NCBI GenBank assembly: GCA_034676685.1
Contig: JAUCBT010000006.1
Location: 6,983 to 70,982 of the forward strand
DNA: 64,000 nucleotides
Direction of reading: 5' to 3'
Origin: Xanthobacter sp.
GTDB taxonomy: Bacteria; Pseudomonadota; Alphaproteobacteria; Rhizobiales; Xanthobacteraceae
Shown piece after piece: positions 16,724-32,959 of this stretch (position 1 is its first letter; every line of letters starts with the position of its first letter). The translations under genes were made by a program, and so were the position numbers. The notes under the pieces are model-generated. The model saw only the letters and a list, made by a program, of their open reading frames with translations. It was not told the DNA's origin and did not search any database.

Positions 16724-16771
16724 TATTTCCTCCCGGTGGCGGGTGACCGCCTCCATACCCTTTATGGCGTG

Positions 16772-17548: not shown

Positions 17549-17602
17549 TTTCCTGCGGGAATATGCGGCCAGCACAGGCAAACGGATGCTGGCCGCAGGA
17601 GA

Positions 17603-18829
17603 TCAGTTCTTCTTCACCAGCGGGCATGTGCTTTCAGACAGGGGCCGATAAGCCTCCTTGCCCGGGATGACGCTCAGCAGCTTGTAGACGTCCCACTCGC
17701 CCGTGGATTCGGCCGGTGTTTTCACCTGATACACATACATGTCGTGAACCATGCGCCCATCTTCGCGGATCACACCATCCTTGGCGAAAAAGTCATTCAC
17801 GGGCATTTCGCGCATCTTGGCCATGACGGCATCCGCATCCGTGGTGCCGGCAGCCTGCACGGCCTTGAGATAATGCATGGTCGAGGAATAATCGCCAGCA
17901 TCCCCCATGTGTGGCGGGCGGCCGACACGCTCTGCAAACCGCTTGGAGAAGGCGCGGGTTTCATCATCCCGATCCCAATAGAACGCATTGGTCAGGATCA
18001 TCCCCTGCGCGGCTTCCAGCCCCAAAGAATGGGTATCCGTCAGCCACACCAGAAGACCGGCGAGGGTCTTGCCCTGATTGGTCAGCCCGAATTCGCCCGC
18101 AGACTTCACGGCATTGATGAACGTGGTGCCCGAACCGGCAATGGCGACGACATCTGCCGGAGAAGCCATCGCCTGAAGCATGAATGAGCTGTGATCTGTC
18201 GTTTCGATGGGATAGCGGATCGATCCCACAACCGTCCCGCCGAGCGACTTGAGAATGGCGCTCGCATCCGATTCCAGAGCGTGGCCAAAAGCATAGTCTG
18301 CGGTCAGGAAGAACCATTTCTTATGGTCCTGCTTCGCCAGTTCCCGTGCAGTGCCATTGGCGAGCGCATATGTATCATAGGCATAATGAACGGAGTGCGG
18401 CGTGCATCCCTCACCCGTCAGCTTGGATGAACCAGAGCCGTTGACGATGGCAATGCCATTATGCTCCGCCGCAACACCGGCAACTGCGAGCGCGATGCCG
18501 GAATTGATCAGGTTGGCGATCAGATTCACGCCACCCGATTCATACCATTCCTGAGCTGTTGAAACGGCAAGCTCCGGCTTGTTCTGGTGATCGGACACCA
18601 GAACCTCGATCTTGCGACCCAGAACGTCCTTTCCAAAATCCTCGACCGCCATCTTCACAGCCGCCACGGAACCTTCACCGGCCTCATGGCTGAACTGTCC
18701 GCTCATGTCGGTCAGCACACCGATCTTGACCGGTGGATTCTGCGCCAGAACGGGGGCGTAACTTGCGGAAACCAGCAACGCGGCTGCAAGAGCGGCCGGC
18801 CGCAAAGTGCGTGCATTCAAGCGCACCAT
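17603..18829 (-). CDS. ABC transporter periplasmic binding protein, Liv/branched-chain (type I PBP) family
   Basis: Signal peptide, then PVKIGVLTDMSGQFSHEAGEGS... of typical length (408 aa). GGGAGGA lies 7 nt before the ATG. Confidence 0.85.
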   Translation of the reverse strand: MVRLNARTLRPAALAAALLVSASYAPVLAQNPPVKIGVLTDMSGQFSHEAGEGSVAAVKMAVEDFGKDVLGRKIEVLVSDHQNKPELAVSTAQEWYESGGVNLIANLINSGIALAVAGVAAEHNGIAIVNGSGSSKLTGEGCTPHSVHYAYDTYALANGTARELAKQDHKKWFFLTADYAFGHALESDASAILKSLGGTVVGSIRYPIETTDHSSFMLQAMASPADVVAIAGSGTTFINAVKSAGEFGLTNQGKTLAGLLVWLTDTHSLGLEAAQGMILTNAFYWDRDDETRAFSKRFAERVGRPPHMGDAGDYSSTMHYLKAVQAAGTTDADAVMAKMREMPVNDFFAKDGVIREDGRMVHDMYVYQVKTPAESTGEWDVYKLLSVIPGKEAYRPLSESTCPLVKKN

Positions 18830-19075
18830 GCCTTCATCCTCCCAAATGAAGTGATACCATTTTCAGTATCATTATCGAACGCGATATTAATTGCATTATT
18901 GGACTTTTCACGTCAATAGGCCAATTAATACGCCATGACGCCCATTTCACCGCGACTTAAGAGGGCGCAGTTGACACGCATCACAGTTTCATAGTTAGAC
19001 TTTTATGCCGGATAGAACTTTTCGAAGAGAAGCGATCGGCACAACGCCCGGACAGGGCGGCAGGGAGGAGACACA

Positions 19076-19834
19076 GTGAGCGAATCGAGTTGCATCCTCG
19101 AGGCGAAGGGGCTGCGCAAATCCTTTGGAGGCTTCGTCGCCATCGCAGGTGTGGATCTGCGGGTCGCGACGGGGCACATCCATGCGCTGATCGGCCCGAA
19201 CGGAGCGGGGAAATCCACCCTTTTCAATCTTCTGACCAAGTTCATTCAGCCAACAGGTGGCGAAATCCGCTTCAAGGACAACGACATCACGCGCGCCTTG
19301 CCAGCCGCGATTGCGCGCATGGGTATGGTGCGCTCATTTCAGATCTCCTCCGTTTTTCCCCACCTGACGGTCTACGAAAATATCCGCGTTGCGCTTCAGG
19401 CCCATGGCAAAGACACTTGGGGTTTCTGGAAGTCCGAAGATGAACTGCATCGCTTCGACGATGAAGTGCATCAACTGATCTGCCAGGTCGGATTGGAAGA
19501 TCTGGTCTATACACGCGCATCAGACCTTTCCTACGGCCGCAAGCGCGCTCTGGAACTGGCCACCACCTTGGCCCTGCGCCCCGAACTGATCCTGCTGGAT
19601 GAACCCATGGCAGGCATGGGGCAGGAAGATATCGAACGCACAGCCGCGCTCATTCATGCGTTGGGACGCAGGCACACGGTGCTCATGGTCGAGCACAATC
19701 TGAAAGTCGTCGCCAACATTTCAGACCGCATCACCGTGCTGCGCCGGGGCGAGAAGATCGCCGAGGGCAGCTATGAAGAGGTCTCCGCCAATGCGGAAGT
19801 GCGCTCGGCCTATATGGGAGGCGCACATGGCTGA
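19076..19834 (+). CDS. Liv-type ABC transporter ATP-binding protein (LivG-like)
   Basis: Walker A GPNGAGKST, LSYGRKRALELA and LILLDEPMAG. GTG start. Confidence 0.85.
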   Translation: MSESSCILEAKGLRKSFGGFVAIAGVDLRVATGHIHALIGPNGAGKSTLFNLLTKFIQPTGGEIRFKDNDITRALPAAIARMGMVRSFQISSVFPHLTVYENIRVALQAHGKDTWGFWKSEDELHRFDDEVHQLICQVGLEDLVYTRASDLSYGRKRALELATTLALRPELILLDEPMAGMGQEDIERTAALIHALGRRHTVLMVEHNLKVVANISDRITVLRRGEKIAEGSYEEVSANAEVRSAYMGGAHG

Positions 19835-20531
19835 AACGCGACTTCAGGTGGAAGCCCTTGAGGGCTGGTATGGCGAAAGCCACGTTCTGCACGGGGCATC
19901 ATTTCATGTGCGGCGCGGTGAGGTTGTCACGCTGCTCGGGCGCAATGGCGCGGGCAAGACATCCACCATGCGCGCGCTCGCCGGGGTCATGCGCAAACGC
20001 AAGGGGCGCGCGCTGTTTGACGGCAAAGACCTGCTCAGCGCCCCGCCTCATCGTGTGGCCCATCTGGGGCTTGGTTTCGTGCCGGAGGAACGGGGGATCT
20101 TCTCATCGCTGACCGTGCGCGAAAACCTGATGCTGCCGCCCATCGTGCGTTCCGGCGGATGGTCCATTCAGGACATCCACGACCTGTTTCCCAACCTCAA
20201 GGGACGCGACACCACCATCGGCACCCGCCTCTCGGGGGGAGAGCAGCAGATGCTGGCAATGGCGCGCATCCTGCGCACGGGGTGTGATTTCATATTGCTG
20301 GATGAACCGACCGAGGGGCTGGCACCCGTCATTGTCGAACATATCGGCCATGCTCTTGTGAAGCTGAAAGAAAAAGGCATCACCGTTCTTTTGGTCGAAC
20401 AGAATCTGAACTTCGCCCGAAGCGTCGCCGACCGTCACTATGTGATGGAGCAGGGCCGCATCATCGATGAAATCGACAATGGCAGCCTGTCTTCGCACAT
20501 GGACAAGCTGAACCGCTATCTCGGCATCTGA
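19827..20531 (+). CDS. Liv-type ABC transporter ATP-binding protein (LivF-like)
   Basis: GRNGAGKTST, LSGGEQQMLAMAR and ILLDEPTEGLAP. ATG 19827 has GGGAGG upstream and overlaps the upstream gene by 8 nt. Confidence 0.85.
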   Translation: MAETRLQVEALEGWYGESHVLHGASFHVRRGEVVTLLGRNGAGKTSTMRALAGVMRKRKGRALFDGKDLLSAPPHRVAHLGLGFVPEERGIFSSLTVRENLMLPPIVRSGGWSIQDIHDLFPNLKGRDTTIGTRLSGGEQQMLAMARILRTGCDFILLDEPTEGLAPVIVEHIGHALVKLKEKGITVLLVEQNLNFARSVADRHYVMEQGRIIDEIDNGSLSSHMDKLNRYLGI

Positions 20532-20540
20532 GAGGGCATC

Positions 20541-21428
20541 ATGACCGAATTTTTCGGAGTGCCAATTGCCGTCCTCTCGGGACAGGTGATGATTGGCCTC
20601 ATCAACGGATCTTTCTACGCTCTTCTGTCTTTGGGTCTCGCCATCATCTTTGGCCTGCTCAATGTCATCAACTTTGCCCATGGCGCATTCTACATGCTGG
20701 GCGCGTTCGTCTCGTGGGGATTGCTGACCTATGGCGGCGTCGGCTACTGGCCATCCCTGCTGCTGACACCGTTGATCGTGGGCGCGCTGGGCGCACTGTT
20801 CGAGCGGACCATGCTGCGCCGCCTCTATGGGCTGGACCACCTCTTCAGCCTGCTGCTCACTTTTGGCCTCGCCCTGGCACTGGAAGGCGTTTTCCGCTGG
20901 TTTTACGGCGCAGGCGGCAAATCCTATCCCGTTCCGGCAAGTCTTCAGGGTGTCTATAATCTTGGCTTCATGGTGCTGCCCATCTATCGTGCCTGGGTGG
21001 TTGTCGCCTCGCTTACGGTCTGCCTGCTGGCATGGGTGGTGATCGAGAAAACGCCGTTGGGCGCTCGCCTGCGCGCCGCTACAGAAAATCCGAAGCTTGT
21101 CACCGCGTTCGGCATCAATGTGCCCTTGATGCTCACGCTCACCTATGCGGCCGGCGTGGCTCTGGCGGGCCTGGCCGGCGTCATGGCCGCGCCGATCTAT
21201 CAGGTCAGCCCGAATATGGGTTCAAGCCTCATCATCATTGTCTTTGCTGTCGTGGTCATTGGCGGCATGGGCTCCATCATGGGGTCCATCGTCACGGGCC
21301 TGATGCTGGGGGTGCTGGAGTCTCTGACAAAAGTTTTCTTCCCCACGGCATCCGCCATCACCGTCTTCATCGTGATGATCCTCGTACTGCTCATGCGCCC
21401 GGCCGGGCTGTTCGGAAAGGACAAGTAA
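20541..21428 (+). CDS. Liv-type ABC transporter permease (LivH-like)
   Basis: Polytopic membrane protein. The N-terminus GLINGSFYALLSLGLAIIFGLLNVINFAHGAFYMLGAF is typical of LivH. Confidence 0.85.
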   Translation: MTEFFGVPIAVLSGQVMIGLINGSFYALLSLGLAIIFGLLNVINFAHGAFYMLGAFVSWGLLTYGGVGYWPSLLLTPLIVGALGALFERTMLRRLYGLDHLFSLLLTFGLALALEGVFRWFYGAGGKSYPVPASLQGVYNLGFMVLPIYRAWVVVASLTVCLLAWVVIEKTPLGARLRAATENPKLVTAFGINVPLMLTLTYAAGVALAGLAGVMAAPIYQVSPNMGSSLIIIVFAVVVIGGMGSIMGSIVTGLMLGVLESLTKVFFPTASAITVFIVMILVLLMRPAGLFGKDK

Positions 21429-21429
21429 A

Positions 21430-22428
21430 ATGGTCCATCGATACAAGGATTTCCGGCCAAGTCTGGTTTCCGCTCCCTGGCGTTATGGCTTTTTGGCACT
21501 TGCGATTGCGGTGGCGCTGCTTGCACCTCTGGCGATCTATCCGCTGTTTCTGGTCAAAGTGCTCTGCTTCATGCTGTTTGCTGCGGCCTTGAACCTCGTC
21601 CTTGGCTTTGCGGGCCTATTGTCTCTGGGGCACGCCGCCTTTTTTGGCGGAGCAGCCTATGCCTTTGCCCAATCCGCCAAAATCTGGGGCTGGCCGTTCG
21701 AGCTTTCACTGCTGTTCGGTGTGGTGGTGGGTGGCGCGCTGGGGTTCATCTTCGGGCTGATCGCCATCCGCCGGCAGGGCATCTACTTCACAATGATCAC
21801 GCTGGCTCTGGCGCAGATGGTCTACTTCCTCGCCATTCAGGCCCCCTTCACGGGTGGCGAGGACGGCATCCAGAATGTGCCTCGCGGCACACTGCTGGGG
21901 CTTCTGGATCTGCGCAATACCAGCACGCTCTATTATGTGGTTCTGGTGATTGTGGTGGCCTGCCTGCTGCTGATCCGGCGCACGGTGCATTCGCCATTCG
22001 GGCATATTCTGGGTGCCATTCGCGAAAATGAAACACGGGTCACGTCGCTCGGCCTGAATGTCAGTCGCTACAAGCTTCTGGCCTTCACTCTGTCTGCGGC
22101 TCTTTCCGGGCTTGCCGGTGCACTCAAGGCCTCTGCCTTCCAGCTGGCAACGCTGAATGATGTCTCCTGGCACATCTCGGGCGAAGTCGTGCTGATGGTT
22201 CTGATCGGCGGCATCGGCACATTGTGGGGCCCGCTGTTCGGCGCAATCTTCGTGGTGATGATCGGCCATATCCTTGCGACATCGGGGCTGCCTGTATCGC
22301 TGGTCGTGGGCGTAGTGTTCATGGCCTGCGTCATGCTCTTCCGGCGCGGTTTCTATGGCGAGACGGTTGAATATCTGCGCCGCAACCTCACCCGCAATGC
22401 GCCCGCGGCCAGGGATGCCGGGCATTAA
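21430..22428 (+). CDS. Liv-type ABC transporter permease (LivM-like)
   Basis: Polytopic membrane protein with LNLVLGFAGLLSLGHAAFFGGAAY. It starts 2 nt after the livH-like stop. Confidence 0.85.
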   Translation: MVHRYKDFRPSLVSAPWRYGFLALAIAVALLAPLAIYPLFLVKVLCFMLFAAALNLVLGFAGLLSLGHAAFFGGAAYAFAQSAKIWGWPFELSLLFGVVVGGALGFIFGLIAIRRQGIYFTMITLALAQMVYFLAIQAPFTGGEDGIQNVPRGTLLGLLDLRNTSTLYYVVLVIVVACLLLIRRTVHSPFGHILGAIRENETRVTSLGLNVSRYKLLAFTLSAALSGLAGALKASAFQLATLNDVSWHISGEVVLMVLIGGIGTLWGPLFGAIFVVMIGHILATSGLPVSLVVGVVFMACVMLFRRGFYGETVEYLRRNLTRNAPAARDAGH

Positions 22429-22443
22429 GGTTCAGAAGAGAAA

Positions 22444-22475
22444 GCAAACCCGCTACCCGACTGTGGCGGGTTTGC
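22444..22475 (+). terminator. Stem-loop terminator after the ABC operon
   Basis: GCAAACCCGC-12 nt-GCGGGTTTGC, a perfect 10-bp stem 16 nt after the stop. There is no strong T-run. Confidence 0.5.
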
Positions 22476-22502
22476 ATAATCAGGCGGATATGTATAAGGG
22501 GC

Positions 22503-23492
22503 ATGTCTCTTAAAAGGTCTTTCTTTGCAATGAAACCGGACGCAGCCGCGCCATTGAATCTGCCTGTCGTGATGCAGCGGCATTCCTCTGTCCGGCGCGC
22601 GATCGATATCGTTCTGGACAGCTGGAACTTCCTGATCATTCGCGAAGCCTTTTTCGGCGTGCGCCGGTTTGACAAGTTTCAGGCCCGCCTCGGCATTCCC
22701 CGCCAGACTCTGTCTTCACGGCTGAATGTCCTGGTTGAGAAAGAGATACTCGCCATCGGCCGCCGGCCCGGTGAGCCCGGGCACCAGTACTTCCTGACAG
22801 AACGCGGCAAGGATCTTTTCCCCGCCATGCTGTCGCTGATGGAATTCGGCGATACCTGGCTATGTGGAAACGAACTGCCGCCGCTCCAGCTCATCCACAC
22901 CAAATGCGGCAAGGAGTGCCACCCGATCACGGTCTGCTCGAGCTGCCTTGAGCCGATTGATGCGCGCTCTGTCTCGCCGCGTGACGGACCGGGTGCAGGG
23001 TTTGAGCCTGCCGAGGCGCGCCCGCGCTCCCGTCGCAGCTCCGACCCGACCCTTCTCCAGCGCGTGCGCCCCTGCACGGTGGCAGGCAGCCTTGCCATTA
23101 TCGGCGACCGCTGGAGCTTCCTGATCCTGCGCGAGGGCTGGACAGGGGTGCGGCGCTTTGAGGAAATGCGCGAAAATCTCGGCATTGCACCCAACATCCT
23201 GACCGACCGCTTGAACCGGCTGGTGGAGGCGGAGGTCTTCCGGCGCACGCCCTACGGCAATGGCGATCGGCAGGAATATCGCTTCACCGAAAAGGGTTTA
23301 GCGCTCTACAAGCCGATGATCGTGATGATGGCATGGGGCGACAAATGGCTGGCCAATGGCAAGCCGCCCATGCGTCTGCGCCACAAGGCCTGTGGGCATG
23401 ACTTCACGCCCATCGTCGTCTGCTCGGAATGCAAGCAGCCGATCCATGCACGCGATACGGACTATATCCTGCGATACGATTTACCCGAGTAA
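22503..23492 (+). CDS. Transcriptional regulator with two tandem HxlR-type winged-helix domains, each followed by a Cys cluster
   Basis: Repeat 1 is WNFLIIREAFFGVRRFDKFQARLGIPRQTLSSRLNVLVEKEIL...HTKCGKECHPITVCSSC. Repeat 2 is WSFLILREGWTGVRRFEEMRENLGIAPNILTDRLNRLVEAEVF...HKACGHDFTPIVVCSEC. Confidence 0.75.
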   Translation: MSLKRSFFAMKPDAAAPLNLPVVMQRHSSVRRAIDIVLDSWNFLIIREAFFGVRRFDKFQARLGIPRQTLSSRLNVLVEKEILAIGRRPGEPGHQYFLTERGKDLFPAMLSLMEFGDTWLCGNELPPLQLIHTKCGKECHPITVCSSCLEPIDARSVSPRDGPGAGFEPAEARPRSRRSSDPTLLQRVRPCTVAGSLAIIGDRWSFLILREGWTGVRRFEEMRENLGIAPNILTDRLNRLVEAEVFRRTPYGNGDRQEYRFTEKGLALYKPMIVMMAWGDKWLANGKPPMRLRHKACGHDFTPIVVCSECKQPIHARDTDYILRYDLPE

Positions 23493-23504
23493 AGGCATGG
23501 GGCA

Positions 23505-25898
23505 TCAGGCCGATGCCCCATTCTTCTCCCGCGCGGCGCGCACCAGCTGGAACAGCCGCTCCGGCGTTGCCGGCAACATGTTCACCTTCACGTCCAGATG
23601 CGCCAACGCATCCGAGATTGCATTGGCGATGGTCGCGGGTGCCCCGATGGTGCCCCCTTCCCCCATGCCGCGAAAGCCACCCACATTATTGGGCAGGGCA
23701 GCCTCGATATGAACGATGTCGATGTCCGGCACATCGGTTGCGACCGGCAGCAGATAATCGGCAAGGCTGGCCGCCACGCTCTGCCCCTGCTCGTCATGGA
23801 TGATCTCTTCCAGCAGCGCCGCCCCGATGCCCTGCGCCACCGCGCCATGCACCTGCCCGTCAACGATCATAGGATTGATGATGCGTCCGCAGTCTTCCGC
23901 CACCACATAGTTGAGGATTTTCACCCCGAATGTGCCGGGGTCTACCTCCAGCATGCACAGGTGGGTCGAGGAACAGGCCGTGCCGAGATAGGGATCATAG
24001 GTTTCCTGCACCACCAGATCGACGCGCTTATCGCGCGGGATGCGACCCATCTGGTTATAGACGGCCTTTGCCACCTCCTTCAGCGACAGGCTCTGGTTGG
24101 AACTGCGCGCGGTGATGATGCCGCCATGAAGATCCAGTTCATCAGCATTGGCTTCCAGCAGGATGGCGGCCATCTCCAGCACCTTGCTCTTCAGCGCCCG
24201 TGCCGCAAGGGTTGCCGCCCCGCCCCCCAGAACCGCCGAACGACTGGCATAGGTGCCCGAACTCATTGGCACCAGAGAGCTGTCTCCATGCAGGACCACA
24301 ATGTCATCCATGGTGCAGCCTAGCTCATCGGTGATGATCTGCGCCAGCGTCGTTTCCAGCCCCTGCCCGTGTGAGGCGACACCGAAAGCGGCTGTCACCA
24401 CACCCGTTGCATCGATGGAGATGTTCGCCGTTTCCGTACCGGTATTGATCGGCATGCCCGGGGCAACCGAGATGCGTGAGCCGATGCCTGTCAACTCCGC
24501 ATAGCTCGCCATGCCGATACCGACCCAGCGCCCCTTGGCGCGCATGCGGTCACGCTTCTGGACCAGACGGGGATAGTCCACAGCGGCGCAGGCCCCCGCA
24601 AGGCACTCCTGAAAGGCGGACTGATCCCAGATGATGCCCGGCGCGGTGCGATAGGGAAATTCGTCATCCCGCACCAGATTGCGACGGCGGATTTCGGCCG
24701 GATCCATGCCGATCTTGCGGGCCGCCATCTCCACCATGCGCTCCATCGCCAGTGTGGATGAGGGCCGCCCCACGCCGCGATACGGGCCGGTGGGCGGCTT
24801 GGGTGTCATCACCCCCCGGATGCGACCGCGATAAGCCTCGATCTTATAGGGGCCGGGCATGAAGCTGATGACCTGCACAGTCTCCAGCGCAGCTGTCCAC
24901 GGATAGATGGAAAACGCCCCGACATCACCGATCACATCCGCGCGCAAACCCAGAAACTGCCCCTCATCATCAAAGGCCAGCTCCGCCTCGATCCGCTCAT
25001 CAAAAGCCTGGCTCATGGCGGCCAGATCTTCCAGCCGGTCGGCGATATATTTCACAGGGCGCTGGAGCTTGCGCGCCAGAAGGCACACCAGCATTTCCTC
25101 GCCATAGAACGAGCCCTTGCCGCCGAAGGAGCCCCCCACATCTGGCGCAATCACACGCAGCTGATGGCTGGACAGCCCGAGGCAACCGGAAAGCACATCG
25201 CGCACCACACCGGGAATATTGGAGGCGGTGTAGAAGGTCAAAGAGCGCCGCCGCTTGTCCCATACCGCCATATAGCTGCGGTTTTCCATCGGGCTGGCGC
25301 ATTTGCGCGTCATGCGGAAGGTGTCGCCCACAATGTGAGGGGCTTTGCGAAAGACGTCATCCACATCTCCGCGGAGAAATTCGCGCTTGATGATGACATT
25401 GGTGCCCGCCTCTTCATGCAGAAGAGGTGCATCATCTTTCACCGCATCCACCTGACGGATGGCGAATGGCAATGGTTCATATTCTATGTGCACATGTTCC
25501 AGCGCATCTTCCGCCACATAGCGGCTTTCCGCCACCACCGCGACCACCGGCTCCCCCACATAGCGCACCTTGCCGCGCGCCAGCGGCCATGTCGGCGTCG
25601 CGTAATAATCCTTCATGCGTGATGTCGGCACCGCCGGCTGGCATTCGCCCTCGAAATCGGACATGTCGAACACGCCGACCACACCGGGAATGTCGAACGC
25701 ACCGCTGGCATCGATGGAAACAATGCGCGCATGCGGCTGATCTGAACGGCGGATCGCCACATGCAGCATGCCGGGGACCTGCACGTCATCAACATACTCA
25801 CCCGTGCCCGTCAGCAGGCGCAGATCCTCCGTACGCTTGATACGGCTACCCACCATTTTCGGGCGCATAGTGACATCGGAATAATCGGGTTTCTTCAT
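23505..25898 (-). CDS. Molybdopterin-binding large subunit of a xanthine-dehydrogenase/CoxL-family hydroxylase (not a true CO dehydrogenase)
   Basis: 797 aa with an aldehyde-oxidase/XDH a/b-hammerhead plus Mo-cofactor domains. The active-site loop reads PTGPYRGVGRPSS rather than the Mo-Cu CODH loop VAYRCSFR. Confidence 0.9.
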   Translation of the reverse strand: MKKPDYSDVTMRPKMVGSRIKRTEDLRLLTGTGEYVDDVQVPGMLHVAIRRSDQPHARIVSIDASGAFDIPGVVGVFDMSDFEGECQPAVPTSRMKDYYATPTWPLARGKVRYVGEPVVAVVAESRYVAEDALEHVHIEYEPLPFAIRQVDAVKDDAPLLHEEAGTNVIIKREFLRGDVDDVFRKAPHIVGDTFRMTRKCASPMENRSYMAVWDKRRRSLTFYTASNIPGVVRDVLSGCLGLSSHQLRVIAPDVGGSFGGKGSFYGEEMLVCLLARKLQRPVKYIADRLEDLAAMSQAFDERIEAELAFDDEGQFLGLRADVIGDVGAFSIYPWTAALETVQVISFMPGPYKIEAYRGRIRGVMTPKPPTGPYRGVGRPSSTLAMERMVEMAARKIGMDPAEIRRRNLVRDDEFPYRTAPGIIWDQSAFQECLAGACAAVDYPRLVQKRDRMRAKGRWVGIGMASYAELTGIGSRISVAPGMPINTGTETANISIDATGVVTAAFGVASHGQGLETTLAQIITDELGCTMDDIVVLHGDSSLVPMSSGTYASRSAVLGGGAATLAARALKSKVLEMAAILLEANADELDLHGGIITARSSNQSLSLKEVAKAVYNQMGRIPRDKRVDLVVQETYDPYLGTACSSTHLCMLEVDPGTFGVKILNYVVAEDCGRIINPMIVDGQVHGAVAQGIGAALLEEIIHDEQGQSVAASLADYLLPVATDVPDIDIVHIEAALPNNVGGFRGMGEGGTIGAPATIANAISDALAHLDVKVNMLPATPERLFQLVRAAREKNGASA

Positions 25899-26656
25899 CG
25901 GAACCCTTCTTTCCGTGCGGAGAGTTCATGCCATTGCTGGTCATCATGACCGCAGATGATCCGCGCCCCGCGATCCTTGAGCGCCCGGATCTCGGCCAGC
26001 GAATGGATGGCCTGCTCCATATCCCAGCTGTTCTTGGGGGCGTAACCTTCATCCACGTGGCGCATCATGGGCGCGGCATCCGATGCCAGAAGAAAGACGC
26101 CATCGCGCTCCAGTTCCACCCGCGCGGAAATGAGGCCTGGGGAATGGCCCGGAAGGGGCAGGATCACGATCCGCCCATCATCGAACAGGTCCTTTTGGCA
26201 GTCGATTTCCGTATAGACCTGCGCGATCTCCCATTCCTGTGGCAGATACCCCATGCGCTCCGCACCTTCCATACGGGCGGCCGCCAGTTCCGCCCTGTGT
26301 GCAATCACACTGGCGCGGGTGAAAGAGGCATTGCAGCCGCAATGGTCAGGGTGCAGATGGGAGCAGATGACCAGATCAATATCGTCCGCCCCAAGGCCAT
26401 GCGCAGAAAGCTGGTGGAGCACTGTGTCCTCAACGGAAAATATCGGCTGCATGGCCCGCGCCAAAGGCCCCCAACGGCCTTCGGGATCCTCCGCCACCTG
26501 CGGCGCGCATCCTGTGTCGAAAAGCACATTTCCCGATGCGTGACGCAGCAGGACGGAGATAACCGGAAGCTCCACCATCTCTTCCTTGCTCTCGGCAGGC
26601 ATATAGATGGACTTGCGCATTTTGAGACGGCCAGCGGAAAGAATGTCCATTCTCAT
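25895..26656 (-). CDS. Metallo-beta-lactamase-fold lactonase (AiiA/AttM-like)
   Basis: HLHPDHCG (HxHxDH), followed by GHSPG, ASDAA and CGHD ligand positions. There are 4-nt overlaps with both neighbouring hydroxylase subunit genes. Confidence 0.7.
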   Translation of the reverse strand: MRMDILSAGRLKMRKSIYMPAESKEEMVELPVISVLLRHASGNVLFDTGCAPQVAEDPEGRWGPLARAMQPIFSVEDTVLHQLSAHGLGADDIDLVICSHLHPDHCGCNASFTRASVIAHRAELAAARMEGAERMGYLPQEWEIAQVYTEIDCQKDLFDDGRIVILPLPGHSPGLISARVELERDGVFLLASDAAPMMRHVDEGYAPKNSWDMEQAIHSLAEIRALKDRGARIICGHDDQQWHELSARKEGFR

Positions 26657-27156
26657 GTCAGCGGTCCTCTTTCACGGGCCAGTTCACGCACAGCCGCGAT
26701 AATGTGGATGTAGCCGGTGCACCGGCATATGTTTCCCGAAAGCCCCTCGCGGATGTCATCGTCCGTTTCCAAAGGGTGGTGCTTCAGCAGGTCGGCAATG
26801 GCCATCACCATGCCTGGGGTGCAGAAGCCACATTGAAGCCCGTGATGGTCTTGAAACGCCTTCTGGATGCGCGAGAGCTGGTCTGGCGTGCCTTCACTTT
26901 CGATAGTCTCGATATCCATGCCGTCAGCCATCACGGCCAGCGTCAGACAGGAACGGGCGGAGCGGCCATTCAGGGTGATGGTGCAGGCACCGCACACACC
27001 ATGTTCACAGCCGACATGCGTGCCGGTCAGGCCCAGTTCATGGCGCAGGAAATCGGAGAGCAGCATCCGCGGCTCGATCTGCCTCGTGTGATGCATGCCA
27101 TTCACGGTGAAGGTCACGTCGATCTTGCCCCCGTGCATGGGCTCATTCTCCCTCAT
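26653..27156 (-). CDS. (2Fe-2S)-binding small subunit of the molybdenum hydroxylase (CoxS-like)
   Basis: CEHGVCGACT and CGFCTPGMV...NICRCTGY cysteine clusters. Confidence 0.9.
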   Translation of the reverse strand: MRENEPMHGGKIDVTFTVNGMHHTRQIEPRMLLSDFLRHELGLTGTHVGCEHGVCGACTITLNGRSARSCLTLAVMADGMDIETIESEGTPDQLSRIQKAFQDHHGLQCGFCTPGMVMAIADLLKHHPLETDDDIREGLSGNICRCTGYIHIIAAVRELARERGPLT

Positions 27157-28046
27157 GATGCGACCTTTCGCAGCTCAAGTGCACGAGCATGCGCCTTGCG
27201 AATGGCGCGGCCAGCCAGCACGCCAGACAGGTTGCGCCGGTAATCCGCACTCGCATGAATGTCGGTGTTGGGGGTCAGCGTATCGTGCAACCACTGCGCC
27301 ATTTCAGACAGCAAAGATGCATCGGGCTGGCGGCCCTCGGTCAGTGCTTCCAGCCCCTGCATCCGCATCGCGGTTTCACCCACGCCCGTCATGCCGATCC
27401 GCGCATTGCGGATCGCTCCCTCTTCATCCGCATGGAAGGTGATGGCGATGGCGGACATGGCGAAGTCACCATGCCGGCGTGAGAATTCCTCGAAAGCCCA
27501 GCCCTCATTGGGCCGGGAGGTACCAATGCTGATCCCGGTGACCATTTCATCCGGTTCCAGCGCATTGACCAGAGAGCCGACCAGGAACTCGGAAGCCGGC
27601 AGAACACGCCGCGCACCGGCCGACGCGATTTCAATTTCGCCATCGAACATCTGCACGATCATGGGCATTTCGGCGGCAGGGTCGGCATGGCAGACGCTGC
27701 CGCAGAAGGTGCCGCGATTGCGCACGGTCATATGCGCCACATAGTGCATCACATCATGCAGCACCGGGAGCTTGCGCGAGACCACGGCATCACTGGCCGT
27801 CATCCGGTGGCGGGCGAGCGCGCCCATATGCAGCCGATCCCCGCGATCCGCGATCACCTCAAGACCGGGAATGCGATTGATGTCGACCAGAACGGCAGGC
27901 TTCACCAGCCGGAAGTTGATCATCGGCATCAGGCTTTGCCCCCCGGCAATGATCTTCGCCTCGTCGCCATGCTGCGCCAGCACGTCAAGCGCATGCGCGA
28001 TGCTTTCAGCCCGGACATAGTCAAATCTTGCCGGCTTCACAGCCAC
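27153..28046 (-). CDS. FAD-binding medium subunit of the molybdenum hydroxylase (CoxM-like)
   Basis: FDYVRAESIAHALDVL...KIIAGGQSLMPMINFRL, typical of CoxM/XdhB FAD-binding domains. Confidence 0.9.
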   Translation of the reverse strand: MAVKPARFDYVRAESIAHALDVLAQHGDEAKIIAGGQSLMPMINFRLVKPAVLVDINRIPGLEVIADRGDRLHMGALARHRMTASDAVVSRKLPVLHDVMHYVAHMTVRNRGTFCGSVCHADPAAEMPMIVQMFDGEIEIASAGARRVLPASEFLVGSLVNALEPDEMVTGISIGTSRPNEGWAFEEFSRRHGDFAMSAIAITFHADEEGAIRNARIGMTGVGETAMRMQGLEALTEGRQPDASLLSEMAQWLHDTLTPNTDIHASADYRRNLSGVLAGRAIRKAHARALELRKVAS

Positions 28047-28235
28047 CTCCCCTCCGAAGGGTTACACGGCTCATCCAACCGTCAAGGTTGTGCGAAGCCG
28101 CCTGTCCACATTCGGGATCAATTTCTATTTTTCACTTGCTTTACTAGACTACAATAGGGCATGTCAATGGAGGAGGACGCGCGGGGAACGGTGCGCAAGA
28201 CATCGTTCTTCTCATAAAAACAAGGAGGTTGGCGC

Positions 28236-29081
28236 ATGGAGATGTCGGGTCAGAAGCTGATCCCGGAGACACGGGAAACAGTCTGGAAGGCGCTCAATGA
28301 TCCTGAAATTCTGCGCAATTGCGTGCCCGGCTGCCAGACTCTGAACAAGACCTCCGAAACCGAAATGGAAGCCACGGCTTCCATGAAGGTCGGGCCTGTT
28401 TCGGCCAAATTCGGAGGGAAAATATCACTTTCTGAACTGAACCCTCCTGTGAGCTACCGCATCACAGGAGAAGGACAGGGCGGGGTTGCCGGCTTTGCCA
28501 AAGGCAGCGCATTGATCAGCCTCGATGAGGTCGAGGGCGGCACGATGCTGAATTACAGTGTCGATGCACAAGTGGGCGGCAAACTGGCCCAGCTTGGTGG
28601 CCGTCTGATCGACTCCACCGCGAAGAAGATGTCCGAGGCCTTCTTCGAGAAATTCGCATCCGAAATCCGCCGCCAGTATCATGCTGATGGCGGGGCAGCA
28701 CAAACCTCTTCCCCGCAGGCGGAAGCCACACCCACGGCACAGGGCACACCTTCTGCTCCAATCAGCGGAGCATCCGTTCCGCCGCAGATGATGGTGCCGC
28801 CGGGCGCTCCGCCCTTCGCGGGCCCGGGCTGGTTTCCGCCCCCCTATGGCTATGCGCCCCCGCCGCCGCCCCAACCTTCCGGCGGCTCAAAAGCGCCCTT
28901 TCTTGCCGCTCTGGCAATGGCGCTCGTGTTCGCCTTCCTGTGGCTGAGCGAACGACAGGGCAGCCCGCTGATACTGCCTTCAGCACAAGCCCTTACGCCC
29001 GAGTTCGGCGCTGCGGTCCAACTCATCCTCATTGCCATGGTCGGATATCTGTTCGGCCGCCTTTCGGATCGCCGCCACTGA
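28236..29081 (+). CDS. CoxG-like SRPBCC protein with Pro-rich linker and C-terminal transmembrane anchors
   Basis: The N-terminal ~150 aa match the CoxG pattern (ETVWKALNDPEILRNCVPGC...GGKLAQLGGRLIDSTAKKMSEAFFEKF). This is followed by PPQMMVPPGAPPFAGPGWFPPPYGYAPPPPPQP and two hydrophobic helices. Confidence 0.75.
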   Translation: MEMSGQKLIPETRETVWKALNDPEILRNCVPGCQTLNKTSETEMEATASMKVGPVSAKFGGKISLSELNPPVSYRITGEGQGGVAGFAKGSALISLDEVEGGTMLNYSVDAQVGGKLAQLGGRLIDSTAKKMSEAFFEKFASEIRRQYHADGGAAQTSSPQAEATPTAQGTPSAPISGASVPPQMMVPPGAPPFAGPGWFPPPYGYAPPPPPQPSGGSKAPFLAALAMALVFAFLWLSERQGSPLILPSAQALTPEFGAAVQLILIAMVGYLFGRLSDRRH

Positions 29082-29110
29082 GCGGTCCATGTCCTCCCAG
29101 GAGTTTTTCC

Positions 29111-29866
29111 ATGCAGTTGTCCCTCGAAGGCAAGGTCGCGCTGGTGACCGGCGGTGGTCGCGACACCGGAGCTGAAATTGCCCGTGAACTGGCCGCTCTT
29201 GGCGCAACCATTGCCGTCAATTACCGTAAATCTGAAGCGGAGGCCGACGATCTGGTTGCAGAGCTGAGAGCATCTGGCAGCACTGCCAGATCATACCGGG
29301 CCGATATCTCCGATTATGATCAGGTTCAGGCCATGATTGAGGCGATCATTGCTGACTATGGCCGTATCGACATTCTTGTGAACAATGCCGGTTATGTGAA
29401 GTACCAGAGATTTGTCGACAGTACGCCAGCAGACTGGAAAGCCCAGATCGATACCTGCCTGTATGGCGCACTCCATTGCAGCCATGCTGTGGCGTCGCAT
29501 TTCATCCAGCAAAATGGCGGACGCATCATCAATATCGTCGGCGACAGTTCGCGTATCGGCGAAGCCAATCTGGCGCTGGCGGCCGCTGCACGCGGCGCAA
29601 CGGTGCAGCTTGGAAAATCCATCGCGCGTGAGCTCGGCCGCAACAATGTCACCGTCAACACCGTCTCATTGGGGCTGATCCAGACCTCGCACAGCGACCC
29701 GGACTTTCTTGCCAAGAACATGGACAAGATCGTCAAGGCCTATCCCCTGCGCCGGATCGGCCAAGCCGATGATGTCGCGCCGATTGTTGCCTTTCTTGCG
29801 ACGGATGCGGCATCCTGGGTGACCGGGCAGGTCATCAGTGTGAATGGCGGCTTCTCGATGGTCTGA
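29111..29866 (+). CDS. SDR-fold protein (FabG-like) lacking the catalytic Tyr and Lys
   Basis: TGGGRDTG, NNAG and GDSS are present. The YxxxK position reads ALAAAARGA, giving Y to A and K to R when aligned backwards from KSIAREL. ATG 29111 is the first Met after the coxG-like stop. Confidence 0.8.
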   Translation: MQLSLEGKVALVTGGGRDTGAEIARELAALGATIAVNYRKSEAEADDLVAELRASGSTARSYRADISDYDQVQAMIEAIIADYGRIDILVNNAGYVKYQRFVDSTPADWKAQIDTCLYGALHCSHAVASHFIQQNGGRIINIVGDSSRIGEANLALAAAARGATVQLGKSIARELGRNNVTVNTVSLGLIQTSHSDPDFLAKNMDKIVKAYPLRRIGQADDVAPIVAFLATDAASWVTGQVISVNGGFSMV

Positions 29867-29908
29867 AGCACCCGCCCCTCGGGGCGTTCTGGCAAACCGG
29901 AGGCAGAC

Positions 29909-31066
29909 ATGACGCCCTTCGTCTTCAACACCACAAAGTCCATTCTCTTTCGCTCCGGTGCAGCGAAAGAGATCCATATGCATGCCGGCGCGCTTCTGGG
30001 CCGCACTATCCTGCTGGTGACCGATCCGGGTTTGCGCAAGCTCGGACTGGTCGATCCCGCCATCGGCGCTTTGAGAACAGCGGGTCATGAGGTCACCATC
30101 TTCGATGCGGTGGAAGCAGACCCCTCTATTTCCACTCTGAACGCTGCGATCGAGGCTGGGCGATCTGCCGGAGCAACGGGCGTGCTCGGCTTTGGCGGCG
30201 GTTCGTCTCTGGATGTGGCAAAGGTTGCAGCCTTGCTGCTGGGCTCGGGCGAACCGCTCGACGAAGCCTGGGGGGTGAACAACGCCAAGGGGCCGCGCCT
30301 GCCTCTGGTGCTGGTGCCAACCACAGCAGGCACCGGCTCCGAGGTTACGCCTGTCGCCATTCTGACCGTGAGCGGTGATGAGAAGCGTGGCGTATCCTCT
30401 CCTCTCATCCTGCCGGATATCGCATTGCTGGATGCGGAACTGACACTGGGCCTGCCCGCCCCCATCACCGCAGCCACCGGCGTGGATGCCATGGTGCATG
30501 CAATTGAGGCCTATGCCTCAGCCAGCGCCAACAATAACCCGCTGTCACGGATGCTGGCACGCGAAGCTTTGCGGCTTCTGGGGGCGAATATTGAAACCGT
30601 CGTTTCCGATGGTGGCAATGTTGGTGCGCGGGAAGCCATGTTGCTGGGCTCCATGCTGGCCGGACAAGCCTTCGCCAATTCACCCGTTGCCGCCGTGCAT
30701 GCGCTCGCCTACCCGGTGGGCGGTATCTTTCATATTCCGCACGGGCTTTCGAATGCACTGGTGCTGACCTCCGTGCTGCGTTTCAACCTGCCGGCCGCCG
30801 ATGCCATCTATGCCGAGATTGCAGCCGATGCCTTTCCGCATCTGGCCGATGTGCCCGATGATGCGCGCGGCGAGGCCTTCATCACCGCGCTTCAGGATCT
30901 TATCGCCCGCCTCGGCATGCCGCCCCGCTTGCGCGATGTGAACATTCCGGCAGATGCTCTGCCCCGCATGGCGGCGGATGCGATGAAACAGCAGCGCCTG
31001 CTCATCAACAACCCGCGCCCTGTCACGCAGGCAGATGCGCTGGCCATTTATCAGGAGGCTTGGTGA
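29909..31066 (+). CDS. Iron-containing (group III) alcohol dehydrogenase
   Basis: GFGGGSSLDVAK, PTTAGTGSEVT, HAIEAY and HGLSNA metal/NAD motifs. A GGAGG RBS is present. Confidence 0.85.
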   Translation: MTPFVFNTTKSILFRSGAAKEIHMHAGALLGRTILLVTDPGLRKLGLVDPAIGALRTAGHEVTIFDAVEADPSISTLNAAIEAGRSAGATGVLGFGGGSSLDVAKVAALLLGSGEPLDEAWGVNNAKGPRLPLVLVPTTAGTGSEVTPVAILTVSGDEKRGVSSPLILPDIALLDAELTLGLPAPITAATGVDAMVHAIEAYASASANNNPLSRMLAREALRLLGANIETVVSDGGNVGAREAMLLGSMLAGQAFANSPVAAVHALAYPVGGIFHIPHGLSNALVLTSVLRFNLPAADAIYAEIAADAFPHLADVPDDARGEAFITALQDLIARLGMPPRLRDVNIPADALPRMAADAMKQQRLLINNPRPVTQADALAIYQEAW

Positions 31067-31067
31067 C

Positions 31068-31505
31068 ATGCGCGCGCCACCCGGTACACGCGCCGATTAC
31101 GTTCATTTTCGCCAGCACACCACGCGCTGGAGCGACAATGATGTGTATGGGCATCTGAACAACGTCATTCATTACCTGATGTTCGATACCACCGTAAACG
31201 AATGGCTGATCCGGAACGGATTGCTGGATACGAAGAACAGCCCGGCCATCGGCCTCGTGGCGGAAACCGGGTGTCGGTATCATGGTGAGATGTCCTATCC
31301 GCAGGTGATCACGGCGGGCCTGAGGGTCGCCAAGCTGGGCTCATCCTCGGTGCGTTACGATATCGGCCTGTTCGCGGATGACAGCGACATCGCGGCGGCG
31401 GAAGGCTTCTTCATCCATGTCTATGTGGATGCAGCCACGCACCGCCCCTGCCCCATTCCCGTTGAGACCCGCACCGCCCTTCAGCGGCTGGTGAAGGAGG
31501 CATGA
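31068..31505 (+). CDS. Hotdog-fold acyl-CoA thioesterase (4HBT/YbgC-like)
   Basis: RWSDNDVYGHLNNVIHYLMFDTTVNEWL motif. AGGAGG lies upstream of ATG 31068. Confidence 0.75.
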   Translation: MRAPPGTRADYVHFRQHTTRWSDNDVYGHLNNVIHYLMFDTTVNEWLIRNGLLDTKNSPAIGLVAETGCRYHGEMSYPQVITAGLRVAKLGSSSVRYDIGLFADDSDIAAAEGFFIHVYVDAATHRPCPIPVETRTALQRLVKEA

Positions 31506-32959
31506 TGTCCCTGAAGCTGAATGATCCCTCACTGCTGGAAAACCGCAATCTGATCGCCGGGCGCTGGACCCTTGCCGAGAGCGGCAAGACCATCACCGTC
31601 ACCAATCCGGCAACGGGTGATGAGATCGGCGCCGTGCCTTCCGTCAGCCGGGCAGAGGTTGCGCAGGCGATTGCAGCGGCAAAGGAGGCGCAGGTGCTGT
31701 GGGCCGCCCGCCCGGCCAAGCAGCGCACTGCTGTGCTACGCAAATGGTTTGATCTGGTCACGGCCGCAACCGATGACCTCGCCCTGATCCTGACCAGTGA
31801 ACAGGGCAAGCCGCTTGCCGAGGCGAAAGGCGAGATCGCTTATGCCGCCTCCTATATCGAATGGTTCGCGGAAGAGGCCAAGCGCATCTATGGCGACACC
31901 ATTCCCGGGGCTTCCAGCGGTCAACGCATCATCGTGGTGAAACAGCCGATCGGGGTCACGGCCGCGATTACGCCATGGAACTTTCCGGCGGCGATGATCA
32001 CGCGCAAGATCGGCCCCGCTTTGGCCGCCGGATGCGCCATGGTGCTGAAGCCCGCAAGCCAAACCCCGCTCACGGCCCTTGCATTGGCTGTTCTTGCCGA
32101 ACGTGCGGGCGTGCCGGAAGGTTTGCTCTCGGTCGTGACCGGTGCGGCGCGGGACATCGGTGCGGAACTGACTGCCAACCCCACCATTCGCAAGCTCTCC
32201 TTCACCGGCTCCACGGAGGTTGGCAAGGAACTGATGCGACAGTGCGCGGACACCGTAAAGCGCACCTCGATGGAACTGGGCGGCAATGCGCCCTTCATTG
32301 TCTTCGATGATGCCGATCTTGATGCGGCTATTGAGGGAGCGATGGCCTCCAAATACCGCAATGCCGGGCAGACCTGCGTGTGCGCAAACCGCCTGTTCGT
32401 TCAGGCCGGCATACATGATGCCTTCGTCCAGCGCCTGACGGAGCAGGTATCCCGCCTCAAGGTTGGAGCCGGCACGCAGCCGGGTGTCGAGATCGGCCCC
32501 CTGATTGATGGCGCGGCGGTCAGCAAGGTGCGAGAGCTTCTGGATGATGCGAGGTCCAAGGGCGCGACCATCGCGCTTGGAGGCAATCCGCATACACTTG
32601 GCGGCACCTTCTTCGAGCCCACCATTGTCACGGGCACCACCCGGGAGATGGCCTTCTTCGATGAGGAAATCTTCGGCCCTGTCGCCCCGATCTTCCGCTT
32701 TGAACGTGAAGAGGAGGTCATCGCGCTGGCCAATGACACACCCTTCGGCCTTGCCTCATATTTCTATGGCCGCGATGTAGGCCGTGTGATGCGCGTTGCA
32801 GAGCAACTGGAATACGGCATGGTCGGCGTGAATACCGGTATGATCTCAAACGAAGCCGCGCCATTTGGGGGCGTCAAGGAAAGCGGTCAGGGCCGGGAAG
32901 GCTCAAAATATGGGATAGAGGACTATATCTCGGTGAAATATATCTGCCTTCAGATCTAG
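31502..32959 (+). CDS. gabD: NAD(P)-dependent succinate-semialdehyde dehydrogenase
   Basis: 485 aa ALDH with ELGGNAP (catalytic Glu) and GQTCVCANR (catalytic Cys). The N-terminus NRNLIAGRW...VTNPATGDEIG is typical of GabD. ATGA overlap with the thioesterase stop. Confidence 0.8.
   Translation: MMSLKLNDPSLLENRNLIAGRWTLAESGKTITVTNPATGDEIGAVPSVSRAEVAQAIAAAKEAQVLWAARPAKQRTAVLRKWFDLVTAATDDLALILTSEQGKPLAEAKGEIAYAASYIEWFAEEAKRIYGDTIPGASSGQRIIVVKQPIGVTAAITPWNFPAAMITRKIGPALAAGCAMVLKPASQTPLTALALAVLAERAGVPEGLLSVVTGAARDIGAELTANPTIRKLSFTGSTEVGKELMRQCADTVKRTSMELGGNAPFIVFDDADLDAAIEGAMASKYRNAGQTCVCANRLFVQAGIHDAFVQRLTEQVSRLKVGAGTQPGVEIGPLIDGAAVSKVRELLDDARSKGATIALGGNPHTLGGTFFEPTIVTGTTREMAFFDEEIFGPVAPIFRFEREEEVIALANDTPFGLASYFYGRDVGRVMRVAEQLEYGMVGVNTGMISNEAAPFGGVKESGQGREGSKYGIEDYISVKYICLQI

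Follow-up and report, generated by a model that had tools for sequence, protein, structure and literature searches.

The window considered here is a stretch of 64,000 nucleotides (nt) of DNA from Xanthobacter sp. (assembly GCA_034676685.1, contig JAUCBT010000006.1), in which a gene for a metallo-beta-lactamase (MBL) fold lactonase lies inside the operon of a three-subunit molybdenum (Mo) hydroxylase. The open reading frames (ORFs) of the window were taken from a six-frame listing and translated, and domains were assigned with Pfam. Four genes stand head to tail on the minus strand: a coxM-like flavin adenine dinucleotide (FAD) medium subunit (27153-28046; 297 amino acids (aa); FAD_binding_5 and CO_deh_flav_C), a coxS-like [2Fe-2S] small subunit (26653-27156; 167 aa; Fer2 and Fer2_2), the MBL-fold lactonase (25895-26656; 253 aa; Lactamase_B) and a coxL-like molybdopterin large subunit (23505-25898; 797 aa; Ald_Xan_dh_C, MoCoBD_1 and MoCoBD_2). 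This is the order given by the original prediction, which had been made from the letters of the sequence, and the Pfam domains are those expected; those of the hydroxylase subunits M, S and L all exceed the gathering cut-offs. The prediction had also described ATGA overlaps at all three junctions, and reading the sequence confirmed them at 27153-27156 (catcATGAggg), 26653-26656 (gacATGAgaa) and 25895-25898 (ccgATGAaga). Its motifs were recovered as well, since residues 99-107 of the MBL protein read SHLHPDHCG, containing the predicted HLHPDHCG, and residues 371-381 of the large subunit read GPYRGVGRPSS, unlike the loop of an aligned carbon monoxide dehydrogenase (CODH), AYRCSFR. Translation of coxM starts at a GTG with GGAGG 8 nt 5' of it, and the true start of coxS is uncertain because further in-frame ATGs lie 15 and 24 nt downstream of the called start. 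The four genes are real, but the idea that they can be taken alone did not hold; judged from the sequence, they are part of one regulon of about 17 genes.

Species-representative genomes were scanned with the MBL protein, which gave 301 relatives. The best 80 of these loci, each with 10-kb flanks, and one locus from a plasmid search (L002, on an Agrobacterium plasmid) make up the 81 loci analysed. The complete order coxM-coxS-MBL-coxL is present in 56 of the 81, and seven more are consistent with it and cut by contig ends; a search for this four-gene order in other genomes had been suggested in the original prediction. Of 35 loci scored at the coxS/MBL junction, 31 have an ATGA overlap, and at the end of the MBL gene the sequence is ATGA in 41 of 52 loci and GTGA in another four (45 of 52 together). 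Such overlaps would indicate co-translation and co-expression only, and not a complex. The lactonase matches AHL (N-acyl homoserine lactone) lactonases in the PDB at E ~1e-31. Among its orthologs pairwise identity is 48% or more, and the metal-ligand motifs HLHPDH, GH (169), D (193) and GHD (236-238) are kept in 81 lactonase sequences; MBL relatives at 38-40% identity adjoin an unrelated ATP-binding cassette (ABC) transporter and DUF190, not cox genes. Pairwise identities of the lactonase and of CoxL correlate across 59 loci with r = 0.93, a value that none of 999 Mantel permutations attained. Synteny, co-divergence, a shared operator (described below) and the finding of this subfamily only together with this CoxL clade support the lactonase as a genuine, conserved partner of the hydroxylase. 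In two loci (L063 and L086) the lactonase is encoded apart from the cox genes, in an operon with the order thioesterase, crotonase-fold protein, MBL, short-chain dehydrogenase/reductase (SDR) fold protein and ligase. Because of these two loci, the position of the lactonase between coxS and coxL appears to reflect co-expression and not necessity.

The carriers of the cluster include Rhizobiaceae, Bradyrhizobium, Bosea, Xanthobacter, sphingomonads, Acetobacteraceae and Paracoccaceae. Its presence is rare and patchy, with two carriers among 400 evenly drawn alphaproteobacterial genomes. Among 24 congeners, 10 carry it, most of them at 50-57% identity and one at 91%; between the window copy and those of Paracoccus, Frigidibacter and 'Mesorhizobium microcysteis', identity is 75-79%. 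This distribution, together with the pattern of identities across genera and congeners, suggests that the cluster has spread by horizontal transfer. About 14 of the 81 loci are decayed remnants on Rhizobium symbiotic plasmids. The remnant on plasmid p42d of Rhizobium etli CFN42 (L001, 8928-10762) has about 13 similar loci, which include L020, L022, L024-L026, L028-L030, L032, L033, L038 and L064. In these remnants coxM and coxS are fragmentary, and coxL and all genes of coenzyme A (CoA) metabolism are lost; the lactonase ORF is intact (253 aa) and carries an AHL lactonase annotation. An apparent 1083-aa 'CoxL' in L071 was considered as a fusion and dismissed as merely an out-of-frame open stretch.

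The hydroxylase belongs to the three-subunit xanthine oxidase (XO)/CODH family by its domain set and by its catalytic glutamate, which lies in GMGEGG where quinoline 2-oxidoreductase (Qor) has GMGES (Glu743) and which is invariant in 17 clade members. The best match of the large subunit in the PDB is QorL (1t3q, 545 bits). A maximum-likelihood tree was built from 17 MBL-linked large subunits, three paralogs from the window genome, three other plasmid-borne large subunits, two HmfA, NdhC, QoxL, one CODH and QorL, the last transcribed from an alignment. In this tree all the MBL-linked large subunits fall into one clade (100/100) that excludes HmfA, QorL/Ndh, Qox and CODH, and QorL and NdhC form a separate clade (100/99). 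The phylogeny that had been proposed as a check thus sets the large subunit in a clade of its own, grouping with no characterised enzyme in the tree. In the plasmid collection the CoxL orthologs show 59-76% identity, and no further sequence there exceeds 40.6%. Residue 227 of CoxL, at the position of Qor Gln224, is Asn in 14 of the 17 clade members. A Gln at this position is common to Qor, CODH, Ndh and Qox, and it is kept in the sub-clade of L077, L081 and L089.

Several known identities were tried for the enzyme and rejected. It is not a Mo-Cu CO dehydrogenase (form I CoxL), as its loop reads GPYRGVGRP and not VAYRCSFR and its score for TIGR02416 is 504 bits against a cut-off of 991; all NCBIfam equivalogs for CO dehydrogenase, glyceraldehyde dehydrogenase, 4-hydroxybenzoyl-CoA reductase and xanthine dehydrogenase stay below their cut-offs. 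Identity with quinoline 2-oxidoreductase was rejected on the position of the large subunit outside the Qor/Ndh clade and on the replacement of Gln224. The tree also holds another orphan M-S-L hydroxylase clade (100/100), with members on D. shibae pDSHI05 (L091, 5647-9355), on an M. radiotolerans plasmid (L092, 5579-9349) and in the window genome (C28:42084-44414). Its genes are accompanied by a divergently oriented TetR regulator and are followed immediately by a transporter, and the M. radiotolerans copy adjoins urate-catabolism genes.

Clustering of all ORFs of the 81 loci revealed recurrent partner genes, all of which lie within 15206-32959 of the window. Three are on the minus strand. The acyl-CoA ligase (15206-16756; 516 aa; AMP-binding and AMP-binding_C) has malonyl-CoA synthetase and feruloyl-CoA synthetase as its best PDB matches (~250 bits) and is found in 51 of the 81 loci, many loci being cut at the ligase gene. 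It is followed by a crotonase-fold protein (16772-17581; ECH_1), present in 49 loci, and by a LIV-type periplasmic substrate-binding protein (17603-18829; Peripla_BP_6), present in 43 at 67-90% identity. On the plus strand, an ABC transporter with two ATPases and two LIV-type permeases (19076-22428; ABC_tran twice and BPD_transp_2 twice) has its subunits syntenic in 35-37 loci, and a doubled HxlR-type regulator (22503-23492; 329 aa; HxlR in two stretches), convergent with coxL, is adjacent in 58-60. On the other side of the core, also on the plus strand, lie a CoxG-like SRPBCC protein with a C-terminal extension (28236-29081; COXG at residues 5-144; 46-52 loci) and an atypical SDR-fold protein (29111-29866; adh_short; 58 loci). 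Next come an iron-dependent alcohol dehydrogenase (Fe-ADH), a 4HBT-type hotdog thioesterase and a succinate-semialdehyde dehydrogenase (SSADH), again on the plus strand. The Fe-ADH (29909-31066; Fe-ADH in Pfam) resembles 4-hydroxybutyrate dehydrogenase, with 231 bits for that NCBIfam model against a cut-off of 500, and is present in four of the 81 loci. The thioesterase (31035-31505; 156 aa) matches PDB entries 2o6b and 2av9, labelled 'thioesterase', at 141 bits; it occurs in 16 loci and lies directly 5' of the crotonase-fold gene in Bosea, sphingomonads and Xanthobacter. The SSADH (31502-32959) scores 698 bits for TIGR01780, above the cut-off of 646, and SSADH-like aldehyde dehydrogenase (ALDH) relatives at 63-84% identity are found in nine loci. 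For the ligase, the crotonase-fold protein, the SDR-fold protein and the binding protein, NCBIfam and PDB names were generic matches only.

Two of these partners depart from their families at catalytic positions. In the crotonase-fold protein the second hydratase glutamate is absent (FGIPAARLS) and the position of the first reads GGGMH; we take the two catalytic glutamates of enoyl-CoA hydratase to be E144 and E164 of the rat enzyme. IPAARLSI is kept in 50 orthologs, while HmfE keeps PE there. The assignment as an enoyl-CoA hydratase was dropped on these two positions, and the Ala at the second position in 50 orthologs suggests that the protein possibly has a non-hydratase activity, as a decarboxylase, hydrolase or isomerase. 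In the SDR-fold protein the catalytic Tyr and Lys are replaced: across aligned orthologs it reads LALAA--AARG where the aligned classical SDR has YTASK, and the TGxxxGxG motif reads TGGGRDTG. These changes led us to reject it as a classical SDR. A GDSSRxGE motif is kept in all aligned orthologs, and the protein is possibly a selectively maintained, non-canonical SDR acting as an ene-reductase, an isomerase or a non-catalytic subunit.

A common operator ties the partner genes to the core. K-mer counts over the promoter regions of many loci yielded the 15-mer TTGCATTATTAGACT, which occurs exactly in 32 related loci, usually twice: once in the intergenic region between the binding-protein and ABC transporter genes and once about 100 nt upstream of coxM. 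The window has a copy with one mismatch, TTGCATTATTGGACT, at 18891-18905 (plus strand) in the divergent promoter region of the binding protein and the ABC transporter, and a copy with two mismatches, TTGCTTTACTAGACT, at 28136-28150 (plus strand) in the divergent promoter region of coxM and coxG. These two, one per divergent promoter region, are the only matches to TTGCATTATTAGACT in the 64 kb at up to two mismatches, where 0.04 would be expected by chance. Taken alone, the two promoter regions of the window held no inverted repeats and no exact shared k-mers. In L002 the copies are at 4121-4135 and 8526-8540, and in Bosea the operator stands between the divergent units ALDH-coxG and thioesterase-crotonase-coxM. 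In the Xanthobacter locus L086, both the separate cox genes and the operon that holds the lactonase carry an operator site. The doubled HxlR-type protein is probably the operator binder and is our candidate for this role. The 15-nt motif shows no obvious palindromic symmetry. For the site of a winged-helix dimer this is unusual, and it may have to do with the tandem double HxlR structure of the regulator.

Two downstream modules are attached to the same core. In the window the module consists of the thioesterase, Fe-ADH and SSADH, and in L063 the genes for Fe-ADH, thioesterase, crotonase-fold protein, MBL, SDR-fold protein, ligase and ALDH are contiguous in this order on one strand. Ten Bradyrhizobium-type loci encode an AbfD-type 4-hydroxybutyryl-CoA dehydratase/vinylacetyl-CoA isomerase (6vjr, 797 bits; 1u8v, 588 bits) in place of the thioesterase/Fe-ADH/SSADH set. 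In L057 (17935-19530) and nine other loci this dehydratase stands beside a Mo-hydroxylase cluster in aerobic soil Alphaproteobacteria; to our knowledge, all other descriptions of it come from anaerobic fermentation and from CO2 fixation in archaea. Since two known routes for the disposal of 4-hydroxybutyryl-CoA or 4-hydroxybutyrate are joined to one core, the product of the core is probably a C4 omega-oxygenated acyl-CoA at the level of 4-hydroxybutyryl-CoA.

From the observed gene content, conservation, co-inheritance, shared operator and distinctness of the system, we infer its chemical steps, its substrate and the pairing of regulator and operator. We propose, with a probability of roughly 55%, that the regulon of about 17 genes encodes a CoA-dependent, Trudgill-type catabolism of an O-heterocyclic carboxylic acid, likely controlled by the HxlR-type protein via the 15-nt operator. 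The LIV-type ABC system would take up the acid and the ligase would convert it to its CoA thioester; the co-regulated ligase, thioesterase and crotonase-fold genes suggest that the hydroxylase acts on such an acyl-CoA thioester. The Mo/FAD/FeS hydroxylase, tethered to the membrane by CoxG, would then place a water-derived hydroxyl group on an sp2 ring carbon beside the ring oxygen, and the hydroxylated product would tautomerise to a lactone, which the MBL lactonase would open. The SDR-fold and crotonase-fold proteins may reduce or isomerise, and probably decarboxylate, the ring-opened acyl-CoA, with the C4 omega-oxygenated acyl-CoA as the outcome. In the window genome the thioesterase, Fe-ADH and SSADH would carry this product to succinate, while in the Bradyrhizobium-type clusters the AbfD-type dehydratase would carry it to crotonyl-CoA.

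Should 4-hydroxybutyryl-CoA be the product, a count of carbons speaks for a five-membered oxygen ring with the thioester at C3. The hydroxylated carbon would become the lactone carbonyl, and a malonyl-type half-thioester would then release it as CO2. Our most concrete candidate is a ring of the 3-carboxy furan type, for instance 3-furoyl-CoA, hydroxylated at C2 with this carbon later lost as CO2; it is on balance doubtful as the actual substrate, and we name it tentatively. 3-Furoate would fit in that each enzyme type is given a role, though the match is speculative. In its most specific and equally conjectural form, the scheme would describe the first dedicated lactonase partner of an XO-family hydroxylase, in a new aerobic, CoA-dependent pathway for 3-carboxy furans: hydroxylation at C2, action of the SDR-fold protein as ene-reductase or isomerase on the butenolide, opening by the MBL enzyme to an intermediate of the (2-hydroxyethyl)malonyl-CoA type, and decarboxylation by the crotonase-fold protein to 4-hydroxybutyryl-CoA, for which the outlet would be either the thioesterase/Fe-ADH/SSADH set or an AbfD-type dehydratase working aerobically.

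Several observations weigh against CoA-dependent catabolism of an O-heterocyclic acid. Qor, the nearest solved relative, uses a free heterocycle and not a CoA ester, and the ligase is as close to malonyl-CoA synthetases as to aromatic-acid ligases, a resemblance by which it could act after ring opening. A redox role of the SDR-fold protein is uncertain because the canonical Tyr and Lys are absent and the glycine motif is altered. Clusters of the Rhizobiaceae type have no thioesterase, alcohol dehydrogenase, ALDH or AbfD gene within 10 kb, and three AbfD-containing loci have no crotonase-fold gene within the locus. A search of sequencing runs returned metagenome DNA and one unclassified run, with no usable expression data, the genome being a metagenome-assembled genome from a bioreactor. 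The first two of these points would suit a Qor-like order of events, in which the hydroxylase attacks a free O-heterocycle, the MBL enzyme opens the lactone to a hydroxy acid or substituted malonate, and the ligase and then the SDR-fold and crotonase-fold proteins follow. The 545-bit match to quinoline 2-oxidoreductase, the presence of malonyl-CoA synthetase MatB among the best matches of the ligase and the position of the lactonase directly 5' of the SDR-fold and ligase genes in L063 and L086 speak for it. We nonetheless consider it unlikely: CoxL lies outside the Qor/Ndh clade, the thioesterase found in the operon in 16 loci, in first place, fits better with a ligase acting first and a thioesterase last, and the set of ligase, MSL hydroxylase, CoxG and crotonase-fold protein parallels hmfABCDE, whose hydroxylase has a CoA ester as its substrate (PMC3223595). 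The heteroatom might instead be nitrogen or sulfur, as in pyrrole- or thiophene-carboxyl-CoA, with the MBL enzyme as a lactamase or thiolactonase. In favour of this, N-heterocycles are the substrates of most XO-family hydroxylases, the MBL fold is promiscuous, and a thiophene-2-carbonyl-CoA hydroxylase that depends on Mo is known from biochemical work; moreover, orthologs of the system occur in Aquamicrobium and Xanthobacter, genera that include thiophene-2-carboxylate degraders. However, the downstream genes (Fe-ADH, SSADH and AbfD) suit a hydroxy acid, no recurrent transaminase, deaminase or sulfide-handling gene was found among the 81 loci, and the MBL protein groups by sequence with the lactonases AttM, AhlS, AiiA and 4-pyridoxolactonase, so that we regard a nitrogen or sulfur ring as quite improbable.

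The original prediction had gone further and suggested a stoichiometric hydroxylase-lactonase pair. Its conserved partnership stands, whereas a physical complex that channels an unstable lactone appears rather improbable, even though stop/start overlaps flank the lactonase gene on both sides in most loci and the co-divergence of the two proteins is tight. Co-divergence is equally expected for any two co-transferred genes, two loci place the lactonase in another operon, and no lactonase-Cox fusion was found among the 120 closest homologs and the best 150 representatives of 1.84 billion proteins, relatives that all measure 105-310 aa. The opposite extreme, an ordinary quorum-quenching AHL lactonase (or a blc/att-type gamma-butyrolactone lactonase) riding in the operon, would agree with the database name 'N-acyl homoserine lactonase family protein', with AttM as the best NCBIfam model and with the persistence of intact copies on Rhizobium symbiotic plasmids after the loss of coxL. 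Yet no lactonase model reaches its cut-off (AttM, 147 bits against 390; AhlS, 110 against 475; AiiA, 105 against 375; 4-pyridoxolactonase, 93 against 325), and the protein is 27-29% identical to AttM, 30% to AiiB and 28% to AiiA. The subfamily is found only with this CoxL clade and regulon, and the Rhizobium remnants, with their near-identical coordinates and identities, seem to go back to a single decay event in a plasmid lineage that they share. An independent AHL lactonase is thus very hard to credit, and the quorum-quenching annotation carried by this subfamily in hundreds of genomes is probably misleading.

The author of the original prediction was not aware of such a pair having been described, and the searchable full-text literature likewise yielded no description of the cluster or of any Mo-hydroxylase operon with a lactonase gene inside it, although a paper in a subscription journal is possible. 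We rate the system as a variant, previously undescribed in the searchable literature, of a Trudgill-type CoA-dependent Mo-hydroxylase pathway. Soil and root bacteria very commonly carry Mo hydroxylases of the CoxL 'form II' or 'orphan' kind, and a substrate has been assigned to almost none of these enzymes. The cluster offers an unusually complete, conserved and co-regulated set, with transporter, ligase, hydroxylase, lactonase, two atypical members of known folds, a regulator and its operator, and downstream modules of two alternative kinds. If the proposed pathway is true, an enzyme would be assigned to the hydrolysis of the lactone after hydroxylation, a step without an enzyme in the related furoate pathway, and catalytic roles would be implied for an SDR-fold protein without Tyr and Lys and for a crotonase-fold protein without its glutamate.

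The furoate (Hmf) pathway of Cupriavidus basilensis HMF14 and relatives is the first system to be compared. What it has in common with the window system is a CoA ligase, a Mo hydroxylase of the XO family with three subunits, a CoxG-type module and a crotonase-fold protein, and a LIV-type ABC transporter occurs in the window system and often in Hmf. The family analogy to HmfABC drawn in the original prediction was therefore apt, given the ligase, Mo hydroxylase and crotonase-fold protein common to both, but a reading of the enzyme as the furoate enzyme fails. A plasmid of Azospirillum oryzae (L093) carries a canonical hmfABCDE cluster in the order L-M-S-ligase-enoyl-CoA hydratase (ECH), and strain COC8 of this species grows on furoate (PMC8091172). 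The window proteins are 33% (HmfA), 37% (HmfB), 52% (HmfC), 31% (HmfD) and 27% (HmfE) identical to their A. oryzae counterparts, whereas HmfA orthologs among confirmed degraders share at least 54% identity (PMC3223595). We rejected the furoate identity on this value for HmfA, on the different gene order, on the position of HmfA outside the clade and on the presence of a canonical hmfABCDE cluster elsewhere in the genome. That cluster (contig C18:18838-25524) is collinear, L-M-S-ligase-ECH, and 54-67% identical to the A. oryzae cluster; it is without an MBL gene, and the only other MBL match of the genome, on contig C3, is 27% identical. The organism would therefore have two parallel CoA-dependent Mo-hydroxylase pathways. 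The gene order of Hmf contrasts with M-S-MBL-L in the window system, where the other genes lie in separate operons. CoxG is fused to HmfA in Hmf and is a separate protein in the window system. The A. oryzae HmfA (L093, 6944-9970; 1008 aa) has a C-terminal CoxG-like domain 34% identical to the window CoxG, which is separate and has a long C-terminal extension. Hmf is without the lactonase, SDR-fold protein, thioesterase, Fe-ADH and SSADH, all present in the window system, and its end product is 2-oxoglutarate, while a C4 hydroxy acid is proposed here. In Hmf, hydroxylated furoyl-CoA tautomerises to a lactone whose hydrolysis is described as 'spontaneous or catalyzed', without an assigned enzyme (PMC3223595). 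A dedicated lactonase here and not in Hmf would be sensible if the lactone is a butenolide or a saturated gamma-lactone and not a labile enol-lactone.

The hydroxylase of the window also has the M-S-L set, the catalytic Glu and a similar YRGVG loop in common with QorMSL of Pseudomonas putida 86 (PDB 1T3Q). Qor, however, acts on a free N-heterocycle without CoA enzymes or a lactonase, and the window enzyme stands outside the Qor/Ndh clade, with Asn in place of Gln224. The gamma-butyrolactone systems BlcABC and AttKLM of Agrobacterium share three enzyme types with the window: an MBL lactonase, an Fe-ADH for 4-hydroxybutyrate and an SSADH, which lie within 7 kb in the window and contiguously on one strand in L063. 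In contrast to Blc/Att, the window lactonase has the low identity to AttM given above, the genes of the window system are distributed among divergent operons within a Mo-hydroxylase/CoA regulon, and most sister clusters are without the Fe-ADH and SSADH. AbfD of Clostridium aminobutyricum (PDB 1U8V) is known from the contexts of gamma-aminobutyrate fermentation and, with its relatives, archaeal CO2 fixation, not from a Mo-hydroxylase pathway. The protein is absent from the window and its genome, where the best match is 25% identical, whereas a close homolog stands in ten sister clusters beside the same hydroxylase-lactonase core.

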